The translations under genes and the position numbers were made by a program. The notes below the pieces were generated by a model, which did not search any database, was not told the origin of the DNA, and saw nothing but the letters and a program-made list of their open reading frames with translations. Shown piece after piece: positions 2,938 to 4,063 of a stretch of DNA of 5,674 nucleotides (positions are counted from its first letter, which is position 1; every line of letters begins with the position of its first letter). This DNA is from a virus. The stretch lies in IMG/VR virus record IMGVR_UViG_3300045988_037143, positions 1 to 5,674 of that record, one strand, 5' to 3'.

Positions 2938-3159
2938 TTACTCCTCTTTCCCATGGTTGATTTCCCTTCTGAGTATTTCTACCTCAATTTCTGTCGCTTT
3001 TGCTTTTTTTCGGAAGACCATGTCAAGGTAAAACTTTGCGTCGTCGTACTTTGCGGCCTGTCGTAGCAGTTTGTAAGCGGCGTCGATTTCCTTGTAGGTT
3101 CGCGTCAATTTCTCCATGAGTTTCGTGTCGGTCTGGTCTCTTACGTTCCATGTTTTCAC
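2938..3159 (-). CDS. Hypothetical small charged helical protein (73 aa)
   Basis: GTG start at 3159, preceded by GAGGAG with a 7-nt spacer. The protein is Lys/Glu-rich. No recognisable motifs. Confidence 0.45.
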   Translation of the reverse strand: MKTWNVRDQTDTKLMEKLTRTYKEIDAAYKLLRQAAKYDDAKFYLDMVFRKKAKATEIEVEILRREINHGKEE

Positions 3160-3163
3160 TTGG

Positions 3164-3310
3164 TTACTCCTCGGGCTTGTTTCCCTCTACTGCATGATAA
3201 ATCTTGTCCAGCATAGCCAAGATTTTGCGGATGTTGTTAAACAGCGCGTCGATTTCCTTGATAGACAGAGCGGACACCTTCTTTCTTAAGTTATTTTGTA
3301 TAAATGGCAT
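3164..3310 (-). CDS. Possible 48-aa ORF (MPFIQNNLRKKVSALSIKEIDALFNNIRKILAMLDKIYHAVEGNKPEE)
   Basis: Hand-translated. Its stop TAA lies within the GAGGAGTAA RBS of the 73-aa gene. It has no clear SD, and its ATG sits inside a candidate -10 element. The call is weak. Confidence 0.25.
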   Translation of the reverse strand: MPFIQNNLRKKVSALSIKEIDALFNNIRKILAMLDKIYHAVEGNKPEE

Positions 3311-3336
3311 TGTAAAACAGCACTTTCCGCTGTCTA
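3309..3336 (-). promoter_or_regulatory. Candidate secondary sigma70-like promoter just downstream of the terminator (minus strand TAGACA-16 nt-TACAAT)
   Basis: Minus strand TAGACA (complement of 3331-3336), a 16-nt spacer, then TACAAT (complement of 3309-3314). This is a 5/6 + 5/6 match to consensus. It could re-initiate transcription of the downstream genes after the strong terminator. Confidence 0.3.
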
Positions 3337-3352
3337 ACTATTTATGTTGTAT

Positions 3353-3390
3353 CAAAAAAAACAGGGCTTGTCAAGCCCTGTTTTAAAATT
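3353..3390 (-). terminator. Rho-independent terminator. Perfect palindrome ACAGGGCTTG-T-CAAGCCCTGT flanked by A8 and T-rich tracts. Bidirectional, but strongest for the minus strand (stem followed by T8).
   Basis: Plus strand: CAAAAAAAA-CAGGGCTTGTCAAGCCCTG-TTTTAAAATT. Minus strand: ...AGAGAAAAATAA-TTTTAAAA-CAGGGCTTGACAAGCCCTG-TTTTTTTTGAT. It sits immediately after the stop of the 58-aa ORF. Confidence 0.7.
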
Positions 3391-3565
3391 ATTTTTCTCT
3401 TCTGTTTAGTTCGTCTTTTGCTAGCGCGTGGATGTATTCACAACGGTAGCTTATGTCATTACATGGGCATTTTTCGCAATCTCTGTTGCAGTGCTTGAAT
3501 TTGTAGTCCATCCATCTCAAGGCCTCTGTGTCAAGGTCTTTGTACGTTGCTCTTAAAGTTTTCAT
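3389..3565 (-). CDS. 58-aa Cys-rich small protein (MKTLRATYKDLDTEALRWMDYKFKHCNRDCEKCPCNDISYRCEYIHALAKDELNRREK). Possible zinc-binding small protein.
   Basis: Hand-translated. ATG at 3565-3563, preceded by AGGGGAT with a 7-nt spacer, 20 nt downstream of a consensus promoter. The TAA stop abuts the terminator. The Cys/His cluster H25-C26-x3-C30-x2-C33-x-C35-x6-C42-x3-H46 resembles a zinc ribbon or knuckle. It is absent from the track because it is under 60 aa. Confidence 0.55.
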   Translation of the reverse strand: MKTLRATYKDLDTEALRWMDYKFKHCNRDCEKCPCNDISYRCEYIHALAKDELNRREK

Positions 3566-3591
3566 AGTCTTTATCCCCTTTCTTTAATTGG

Positions 3592-3620
3592 ATTATACCA
3601 CAACTTTGCTTATTTGTCAA
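3592..3620 (-). promoter_or_regulatory. Perfect consensus sigma70 promoter on the minus strand: TTGACA - 17 nt - (TGg)TATAAT with an upstream A/T-rich UP-like tract
   Basis: The reverse complement of 3591-3640 is AACTTTTTTTCAAAAACCTC-TTGACA-AATAAGCAAAGTTGTGG-TATAAT-C. Both hexamers match 6/6 and the spacer is 17 nt. The extended -10 TGn is present. The predicted TSS is near 3585, giving a 20-nt leader with an SD for the 58-aa ORF. Confidence 0.7.
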
Positions 3621-3661
3621 GAGGTTTTTGAAAAAAAGTTTAGATGTGCTATGCCTTGAAG

Positions 3662-3701
3662 GTCATGCGGTAGGCGCGGTGCGCCGTACGGAGAGCATGA
3701 C
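3662..3701. other. GC-rich nested stem-loop in the intergenic region. Outer stem GTCATGC (3662-3668) pairs with GCATGAC (3695-3701). Inner stem GTAGGCGC (3670-3677) pairs with GCGCC-(G bulge)-TAC (3681-3689), loop GGT.
   Basis: Inverted repeats read directly from the sequence. This is the only GC-rich island in an otherwise AT-rich non-coding region. Confidence 0.4.
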
Positions 3702-3948: not shown

Positions 3949-3968
3949 ATAATAAATAATAATAATAT
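3949..3968. repeat. (AAT)n / AT-only tract (aataataaataataataata) immediately 5' of the GC hairpin
   Basis: Read directly. A 100% A/T 20-mer. Confidence 0.6.
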
Positions 3969-4008
3969 CATGCGCGTGCGTGCGCGATTACGTGCGCGCG
4001 CGTGCATG
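3969..4008. repeat. 40-nt alternating pyrimidine-purine (CG/TG) element. It forms an 18-bp hairpin (catgcgcgtgcgtgcgcg - atta - cgtgcgcgcgcgtgcatg) with 14 Watson-Crick pairs and 4 G:T pairs. It has potential to form Z-DNA or an ssDNA hairpin.
   Basis: Each arm alternates Py-Pu perfectly for 18 and 18+ nt. Arm pairing was checked position by position. It is embedded in 100% AT flanks. Confidence 0.6.
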
Positions 4009-4027
4009 TCAATATGAAATAAAATAC

Positions 4028-4063
4028 TCAGCCAAGTAACATACTTGATAGTTACTTGGCTGA
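4028..4063 (-). terminator. Perfect 13-bp inverted repeat (TCAGCCAAGTAAC / GTTACTTGGCTGA) with a 10-nt loop. On the minus strand it is followed by TATTTTATTT. Probable terminator downstream of VP4. The plus-strand loop is ATACTTGATA.
   Basis: The reverse complement of 4028-4040 equals 4051-4063 exactly. A second small hairpin TGACAC-caaa-GTGTCA (4065-4080) overlaps the VP4 stop codon. Confidence 0.6.

Follow-up and report, generated by a model that had tools for sequence, protein, structure and literature searches.

Layout of the ORF58 locus

The stretch analyzed here, the 5,674 nucleotides (nt) of IMG/VR record IMGVR_UViG_3300045988_037143 (hereafter the window), is the whole circular genome of a gokushovirus, linearized inside VP2 and carrying every gene on the minus strand. 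Our subject is ORF58, an open reading frame (ORF) of 58 amino acids (aa), together with the regulatory sequences on either side of it. These probably make up a natural moron-like accessory-gene cassette in the sole control region of this circular 5.67-kb phage, consisting of the main promoter P1, an exchangeable cargo gene, and a terminator that overlaps a restart promoter, P2. The features of the locus are as follows.

4077-3566, minus: non-coding control region, 510 nt
3662-3701, minus: nested GC-rich hairpin block, GTCATGC ... GGCGC-ACC-GCGCC ... GCATGAC, which closes the conserved non-coding control region just 5' of P1 (sequence and fold)
3625-3641, minus: A/T-rich UP-element-like tract AAACTTTTTTTCAAAAA (sequence), whose proximal CAAAAA(A)C part is retained in relatives
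3592-3620, minus: P1, TTGACA (3620-3615), a 17-nt spacer, and TGgTATAAT (3600-3592), with the consensus base at every position of the -35, -10, and extended -10
3574-3582, minus: Shine-Dalgarno-like sequence GAAAGGGGA, with its AAGGGG core at 3580-3575 and the last G 9 nt before the ATG at 3565
3389-3565, minus: ORF58, a 58-aa Cys4 protein of cargo family c10, with invariant L16, C26, C30, C33, C42, and R56
3354-3384, minus: intrinsic terminator, a 12-bp stem with a 3-nt loop by fold, TTGACA in the loop region, and T8 (3361-3354)
3346-3374, minus: P2, with its -35 TTGACA (3374-3369) in the hairpin loop, TGa (3354-3352), and -10 TACAAC (3351-3346)
3164-3310, minus: small ORF (...LSIKEIDALFNNIRKILAMLDKIYHAVEGNKPEE), the first conserved gene 3' of the cassette, and the start of the late block, which continues with VP5, VP3, and VP1

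A sequence-only reading of this DNA had described a fully consensus promoter with TG and an UP-like tract, a good Shine-Dalgarno site, a 58-aa ORF absent from canonical gokushovirus gene sets, and a strong terminator immediately after the stop codon. This description of a genuine promoter-gene-terminator unit holds, with one amendment: the hairpin and its T8 are present, and the stem has 12 bp rather than 10 and begins 4 nt beyond the TAA. The second promoter, P2, had been missed.

P1 is a consensus promoter conserved across the phage group

P1 is a 12/12 sigma70-type site plus TG (TGg at 3600-3598), and no other 12/12 site occurs in the genome. With one mismatch permitted, no promoter match arose in any of 200 dinucleotide-preserving shuffles. 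The tract AAACTTTTTTTCAAAAA resembles the UP-element consensus reportedly defined by Estrem and colleagues in 1998. An AAAGGA/AAAGGGG motif is found at the position equivalent to the Shine-Dalgarno site in homologous loci.

The 17-mer ACGGCGCACCGCGCCTA of the hairpin block (3687-3671) has exact matches in 91 IMG/VR contigs, nearly all of them microviruses of 5.2-5.9 kb. We scored the best sigma70-type site lying 40-70 nt 3' of this 17-mer in 88 genomes, the window included. The score was 12/12 in 36 genomes (TG being present in 32 of the 36), 11/12 in 17, and 10/12 in 25, so that 78 of the 88 reach at least 10/12. P1 is thus evidently the conserved main promoter of this phage group, and a consensus promoter at this position is the rule. 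The same promoter precedes other genes, or the structural genes, in relatives, which removes the earlier supposition that it is dedicated to ORF58.

The control region upstream of P1 (4077-3621, minus) is the sole large non-coding region of the genome and is highly structured. A perfect 15-bp inverted repeat (4065-4051 / 4040-4026) stands directly after the VP4 stop. Beyond it, CG and CA alternate from 4005 to 3972, the sequence is AT-rich from 3968 to 3940, and the direct repeat TGTTGAA occurs as three pairs (at about 3919-3905, 3834-3811, and 3774-3746); a hairpin lies at 3807-3788. The part from 3958 to 3744 is conserved in more than 40 GenBank gokushoviruses and may contain the replication origin or regulator binding sites. 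An Rfam scan of the whole window returned nothing but a sub-threshold match to tpke11 (3954-4028, plus; 25 bits against a gathering score of 43, E = 0.036), which we judged to be chance in the CG/AT-rich part.

The position of ORF58 is an exchangeable cargo slot

ORFs 3' of the promoter were clustered, and genomes were counted by their first cargo gene. At least eight cargo families occupy the slot: c5 (20 genomes), c7 (13), c8 (11), c10 (10), c11 (5), c17 (5), c31, and c33. The ORF58 family is c10, which is also the second cargo in two further genomes. Cargo genes occur singly, in the pairs c8+c10, c8+c7, c17+c7, c5+c11, and c7+c31, or not at all, and the same cassette arrangement recurs in independent samples. 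The c33 family is a single 131-aa peptidase-M15 endolysin (Pfam PF08291, E = 5e-21; phrog_894, E = 1e-35) in L033 (IMG/VR 3300045988_024321), where it occupies approximately nt 90-485 as counted from the beginning of the conserved 17-mer and follows the same consensus promoter; the slot therefore accepts lysis genes too. Searches of the cargo representatives detected no helix-turn-helix family, and the c7 cargo, queried alone, found matches only in microvirus-sized contigs.

Across the 88 genomes, the P1 spacer and -10 variant co-vary with the cargo family. The c7 cargo pairs with a 16-nt spacer, AATnnnAAAAGTGTGG, and c8 and c17 pair with TTGACT-17-TA(C/G)AAT, so the downstream half of the promoter tends to travel with the cargo.

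The closest GenBank records are faecal gokushoviruses of humans, pigs, and monkeys, and these relatives, at 82-90% nucleotide identity, have other cargo or none at the position of ORF58. KT264790 has the same consensus promoter with different cargo, and KT264788 and MG945657 also have different cargo, behind a near-consensus promoter (-35 TTAACA). PV067914 has no conserved 17-mer block and contains unrelated sequence at the slot, and in KT264789 a deletion has left just the 3' end of a c7 gene. In six genomes (L056, L103, L027, L108, L111, and L032), the hairpin is retained and part of a deleted c7 gene is left. One of these, L032 (IMG/VR 3300045988_003155), holds the extracted terminator/P2 region and the downstream leader in two tandem copies, which may be either a real duplication or a terminal-repeat artefact of circular handling of the contig.

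Five genomes have an empty slot (L070, L094, L026, L023, and L092) and only one promoter. Upstream, this promoter has the context of P1; downstream, it continues into the 3' arm, T-tract, and -10 of P2, and the two halves meet at TTGACAA.

GC content is 0.37-0.39 over 3151-3600, against 0.47-0.55 in VP1, VP3, and VP4. This is weak evidence for the deviating base composition expected of a moron, as the entire control region is AT-rich too.

A terminator overlapped by a predicted second promoter

The ORF58 stop codon (TAA, 3391-3389) is followed by 4 nt and then by the arms AAAACAGGGCTT and AAGCCCTGTTTT (3384-3358), which form 12 pairs by fold and were counted separately as arms of 13 nt. The predicted RNA has a folding free energy of -16.2 kcal/mol (z = -5.2), and none of 200 shuffles was as stable. 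An A-tract precedes the GC-rich stem and U8 follows it directly, completing the anatomy of an intrinsic terminator. The loop supplies the -35 hexamer of P2, the 17-nt spacer of which is made up of the 3' arm and T-tract of the terminator.

This composite (5' arm, TTGAC(A/G), 3' arm, T6-13, and TAnAnn at 16-18 nt) is present in 27 genomes, the window included, where it is located after cargo c7, c10, c17, or c31. Its stem varies among them in a compensatory manner: CAGGGC/GCCCTG, GAGGGC/GCCCTC, GAGGC/GCCTC, GGGGC/GCCCC, GGGGG/CCCCC, and AAGGC/GCCTT. An analogous hairpin with a TTGACG loop, T13, and GGTAAAAT follows the ORF58 homolog in a more distant gokushovirus lineage.

In c7 cargo genes such as that of KT264788 (L001, 2020-2217), the last codons are the 5' arm of the hairpin and the TGA stop lies inside the TTGACA loop. 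The coding sequence there extends into the terminator, and a single 6-mer is thus stop codon, hairpin loop, and -35 hexamer at once.

A small hairpin at approximately 3332-3315 on the minus strand (ACAGCGGAAAGTGCTGT; AGCAC-A(A/G)AA-GTGCT in relatives) lies just 3' of the predicted P2 start. It is kept regardless of cargo and may form a stem-loop at the 5' end of the late mRNA. Another promoter-like site at 3336-3309 (minus), TAGACA-16-TACAAT with a score of 10/12, extends over the first ATG of the ORF that follows and is not conserved in relatives; it is probably fortuitous, and P2 was preferred.

ORF58 is a conserved Cys4 protein with a predicted helical fold

Word-index searches recovered seven ORF58-family clusters. 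A profile search of 1.84 billion representatives identified nine small homologs of 31-79 aa (E from 1e-33 to 8e-6), namely the closest cluster representative, P0003, at 1e-33 and eight more distant ones at 6e-13 to 8e-6; a few long, repetitive cysteine-rich proteins in the same search were disregarded. The ORF is intact in 17 homologs, bearing out its expected conservation. The ratio of nonsynonymous to synonymous substitution rates (dN/dS) is 0.06-0.30 against diverged homologs whose dS is unsaturated; values of 0.26-0.80 against three near-identical relatives are less informative, these being only 4-10 substitutions apart. ORF58 is a real gene under purifying selection.

The spacing HCx3Cx2CxCx6Cx3H, which the sequence-only reading took for zinc-ribbon-like, occurs in the window's protein. 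In an alignment of 16 sequences, down to 33% identity, it reduces to four invariant cysteines, C26, C30, C33, and C42 (Cx3Cx2Cx8-9C), while H25, C35, and H46 vary across the family. The zinc-ribbon part of that proposal does not survive: ORF58 lacks the two CxxC/CxxH knuckles on beta-hairpins that define such a fold. AlphaFold2 run on the deeper alignment gave a best model of five with a predicted local distance difference test score (pLDDT) of 91.2 and a predicted template modeling score of 0.73, the other four models having pLDDT of 67-79; a model from eight sequences had reached 71.5. The best model has helices at 4-10, 13-24, and 42-57 with the cysteines in a connecting loop, and by this prediction ORF58 would be a helical hairpin rather than a zinc ribbon. 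The four cysteines most likely hold a zinc ion or an iron-sulfur (Fe-S) cluster, and the Fe-S option is raised by the anaerobic habitat.

Comparison with characterized proteins was of little help in placing the family. Fold searches with the model returned only generic helical hairpins, Foldseek found no PDB match with E < 2.9, and a sequence-profile search of PDB gave only chance cysteine-rich matches with E > 2. The best Foldseek match in BFVD is a Microviridae protein named "Hui1", 33% identical to ORF58, which is probably a member of the family. Hui1 is the name of a potassium-channel-blocking peptide toxin studied alongside the sea-anemone SAK1 toxins, and we took this annotation to be a spurious label attached to a cysteine-rich protein.

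Several candidate relationships were rejected. C26, C30, and C33 form the CX3CX2C motif of the radical-SAM/Fe-S class, but the protein has 58 aa against approximately 250 aa or more for the TIM-barrel and has no radical-SAM Pfam match. A single family member matched TIGR04546 at E = 0.057, which is chance, and the sporulation histidine-kinase inhibitor Sda, a helical hairpin of approximately 46 aa, aligned over only 14 C-terminal columns with an hhalign probability of 4.8%. Pfam DUF5417 (PF17438), itself a family of unknown function, has weak local similarity to the cysteine-rich center of three of 16 family members (best E = 0.001), with 19.7 bits against a curated cut-off of 23.9, and the window protein does not match it. 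The Cx3Cx2Cx8-9C family, of approximately 55 aa, thus had no characterized relative in the sequence and structure searches made.

ORF58 homologs occur in other gokushovirus lineages and also in contigs of double-stranded DNA (dsDNA) phages. The homolog in a tailed-phage contig of 59 kb from the human gut (SPP1-type portal, DnaB, RepA_N) is a lone gene with an extended -10 and a terminator to itself. In three contigs of approximately 15.8 kb, a homolog lies no more than a few hundred bases from the contig start; two of the three have another small ORF ahead of it, and L020 has the homolog as its first gene, downstream of TTGACA-17-TGgTATACT. These family contexts, together with canonical promoters and strong Shine-Dalgarno sites, suggest hosts with standard sigma70/sigmaA promoters, perhaps Firmicutes.

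Other features of the genome

The remaining genes flank the cassette as listed below. The list of ORFs from which the analysis started omits those running off the ends, and so displays only the C-terminal part of VP2.

345-1 joined to 5674-5098, minus: VP2, crossing the window ends
5097-4078, minus: VP4
between ORF58 and VP3, minus: several small conserved ORFs, next VP5
2532-2029, minus: VP3
2032-392, minus: VP1

Translation of the small ORF at 3164-3310 may really begin at a GTG near 3277, preceded by the ribosome-binding site AAGAAGG. Between a basic 39-aa ORF and VP5 lies a conserved ORF of 35-38 aa (2838-2722, minus) with one predicted transmembrane stretch (MIWVGVIASIIAMCSASFALIAMGTDIIKNWGKNK). 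It is found in several relatives (cluster c16) and may be a lysis or membrane peptide; no lysis gene is known in this phage group. A second strong intrinsic terminator (377-355, minus), with a 9-bp GC stem and a free energy of -19.6 kcal/mol, separates the VP1 stop (392) from the VP2 start (345), and its predicted effect would be to reduce the expression of VP2 and VP4 relative to the capsid genes.

Discussion

The arrangement described above suggests a simple scheme for expression of the ORF58 cassette. Host RNA polymerase with its primary sigma factor would initiate at P1, which should be very strong given its consensus -35, extended -10, and UP-like tract, to produce a transcript of approximately 230 nt encoding only ORF58. 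Most of this transcription would halt at the hairpin and U8, the loop of which would double as the -35 of the weaker promoter P2, and transcripts from P2 would proceed through the small ORFs, VP5, VP3, and VP1. Both arms of the hairpin are contained in P1 transcripts, which could therefore terminate; P2 transcripts are without the 5' arm and would for that reason be unable to terminate there. The hairpin would thus both end the cargo transcript and mark the restart of late-gene transcription. Cargo would be gained, lost, or replaced when the conserved flanks recombine, one junction being the repeated -35 sequence TTGACAA.

The role of the cargo protein itself is proposed more tentatively. By analogy with other variable phage loci of strongly expressed small genes, ORF58 could be a metal-stabilized Cys4 helical hairpin, made early and abundantly, which would act early in infection by binding a host macromolecule for host takeover or counter-defense; we regard this as possible but somewhat short of an even chance. 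A bolder extension, which seems to us doubtful in its entirety, is that the promoter duplication, with TTGACAA at either end, and the terminator with a promoter in its loop form a purpose-built slot through which the smallest known DNA phages exchange ready-to-express accessory genes among themselves and with tailed phages that infect the same hosts. ORF58 would then be a traded gene for a new Cys4 metal-binding (zinc or Fe-S) helical-hairpin inhibitor of a host defense system or of the host transcription machinery.

Several observations weigh against the reading of this locus as a moron-like cassette with an early host-directed product. The -10 of P2 in the window, TACAAC, is without the conserved final T. 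The distant ORF58 carriers MT135258, MG945136, MG945157, and MG945199 have no terminator, the ORF58 homolog being the first cistron, and genomes carrying c5, c8, or c11 cargo also have none and are plainly polycistronic; insulation is thus not needed for the slot to work. Use of P1 and P2 and the efficiency of termination are predicted from sequence, and use of sigma70-type promoters from their conservation. With ORF58 and 15 relatives as queries, Pfam, PHROGs, and NCBIfam gave nothing over threshold, and no known family, structure, or domain favors a particular function for ORF58. Finally, two scans of 185,579 species genomes, one with a profile of the ORF58 family and the other with VP1, identified no bacterial or prophage copy, and there is no sign of lysogeny. 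As to the hairpin, the terminator, contrary to the assumption of the sequence-only reading, is not tied to ORF58, being missing from the distant ORF58 carriers and present with other cargo families. The insulation described in that reading is supported for the window genome, and this insulated layout is one of two, the other being polycistronic without a terminator.

Four other explanations were considered. The elements could form a one-off unit in which the promoter evolved to over-express a zinc-ribbon regulator or host-takeover protein, and the 12/12 promoter with TG, the strong terminator, and the absence of ORF58 from the canonical gene set would all fit such a unit. Comparative data largely refute it, however, as the same promoter stands in 88 genomes ahead of other cargo or structural genes, the terminator accompanies other cargo and is missing from distant carriers of ORF58, and the protein is predicted to be helical without CxxC knuckles; we therefore consider it improbable. 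Somewhat less so, though still unlikely, is the possibility that the hairpin is not chiefly a terminator and that ORF58 is the first cistron of a long read-through P1 transcript. In that case, the hairpin could belong structurally to the late promoter or could be a single-stranded DNA (ssDNA) signal, for example for complementary-strand priming or packaging, and it would form in virion DNA too, the packaged strand being of the same sense. Terminators of microviruses such as phiX174 are leaky, the TTGACA of the loop is more conserved than the stem, and the hairpin persists in the six genomes named above and in KT264789 despite lost cargo and a broken upstream promoter. Against this stand the complete intrinsic-terminator anatomy (GC stem, immediate U8, preceding A-tract), the compensatory changes that preserve the stem, and the empty-slot genomes, in which the 5' arm is absent and the hairpin is therefore dispensable for the phage.

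ORF58 might instead act on the phage itself, as a small regulator of P1/P2 that represses its own dangerously strong promoter, or as an accessory factor in lysis or assembly. Autorepression has a precedent in the Aca proteins of anti-CRISPR operons, and the gene lies directly 3' of a consensus promoter that probably needs control, with iteron-like TGTTGAA repeats in the control region as potential protein binding sites; for lysis, one relative has an endolysin in the same slot. Yet the majority of relatives are without the gene and still have the same promoter and repeats, the protein has no helix-turn-helix or other DNA-binding signature and no transmembrane segment, and the family is also present in unrelated dsDNA phages with different promoters, so that a phage-directed role appears distinctly unlikely. 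The last explanation, that ORF58 arose by chance or through faulty assembly, as might be suspected of a very short frame without database annotation, is already refuted by its conservation: it is intact in at least 17 homologs, down to 33% identity, with dN/dS well under 1, it finds its homologs at the profile E-values given above, and the same cassette recurs in independent samples. The moron-like cassette with exchangeable cargo is the explanation that we consider probable.

Morons, a concept due to Hendrix and Juhala, are additional genes that sit among the conserved genes of lambdoid and other tailed phages and bring a promoter and a terminator of their own. The ORF58 cassette is like them in having its own, predictably strong promoter and a terminator directly after the gene, in its presence or absence among close relatives, in a GC content below that of its flanks, and in a gene unrelated to core functions; the homolog in the 59-kb tailed-phage contig is likewise an independent unit. 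It differs from them in that the carrier is a 5.7-kb, probably lytic ssDNA microvirus rather than a repressed prophage, from which classical morons are expressed to the benefit of the host, the promoter duplicates the main promoter of the phage and is not foreign, the terminator is fused to a restart promoter, and a single fixed slot holds alternative cargo. A comparison with phiX174, which has promoters PA, PB, and PD and leaky terminators TJ, TF, TG, and TH, shows a similar general plan: a circular genome with all genes on one strand, in which sigma70-type promoters and intrinsic terminators set relative transcript levels, the window likewise having its second strong terminator after the capsid gene (377-355). 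In contrast, neither a unit isolating one accessory gene nor a terminator loop serving as the next -35 occurs in phiX174, and the elements are not homologous. Anti-CRISPR and other anti-defense loci of Mu-like and other phages share with the slot a fixed position, a consensus-strength promoter, and interchangeable small ORFs of families that are spread across unrelated phages. Unlike those loci, the slot has no linked helix-turn-helix repressor (aca), and none of its cargo families is known to have an anti-defense activity.

Morons, consensus promoters, intrinsic terminators, and small unannotated accessory peptides of microviruses are already known. Kirchberger, Martinez and Ochman (2022; PMC9239249) reported accessory proteins of approximately 65 aa and of unknown function that link microviral genomes, together with occasional acquisitions of peptidases and methyltransferases, and found gene exchange across microviral families or with bacterial hosts to be rare; the ORF58 family, in contrast, is common to microviruses and dsDNA phage contigs. 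The words "promoter" and "intergenic" are absent from the text of that paper, which thus apparently describes neither a promoter/terminator cassette nor a cargo slot after VP4. In the literature searched on gokushovirus promoters and terminators, Microviridae morons, and DUF5417, coverage of which was incomplete so that absence is not proof, we found no earlier account of a single fixed post-VP4 cargo slot in a gokushovirus group, of a terminator loop that is the -35 of a restart promoter, or of a Cys4 family common to microviruses and tailed phages.

In conclusion, the ORF58 locus departs from a familiar view of this family. Microviruses are usually pictured as minimal and genetically isolated, with almost no accessory genes. 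In this group, by contrast, one fixed position behind a consensus-strength promoter exchanges at least eight families of small proteins, at least one of which is common to the microvirus group and tailed phages, and a compact overlap of terminator and promoter would separate the cargo transcript from the structural genes. The natural, predictably very strong promoter and the 31-nt terminator-restart module can be tested as genetic parts, and the cargo set provides defined, easily synthesized candidates for host-takeover or counter-defense proteins from very abundant gut phages. The slot also offers a concrete test of whether microviruses stand outside the gene-exchange network of phages.

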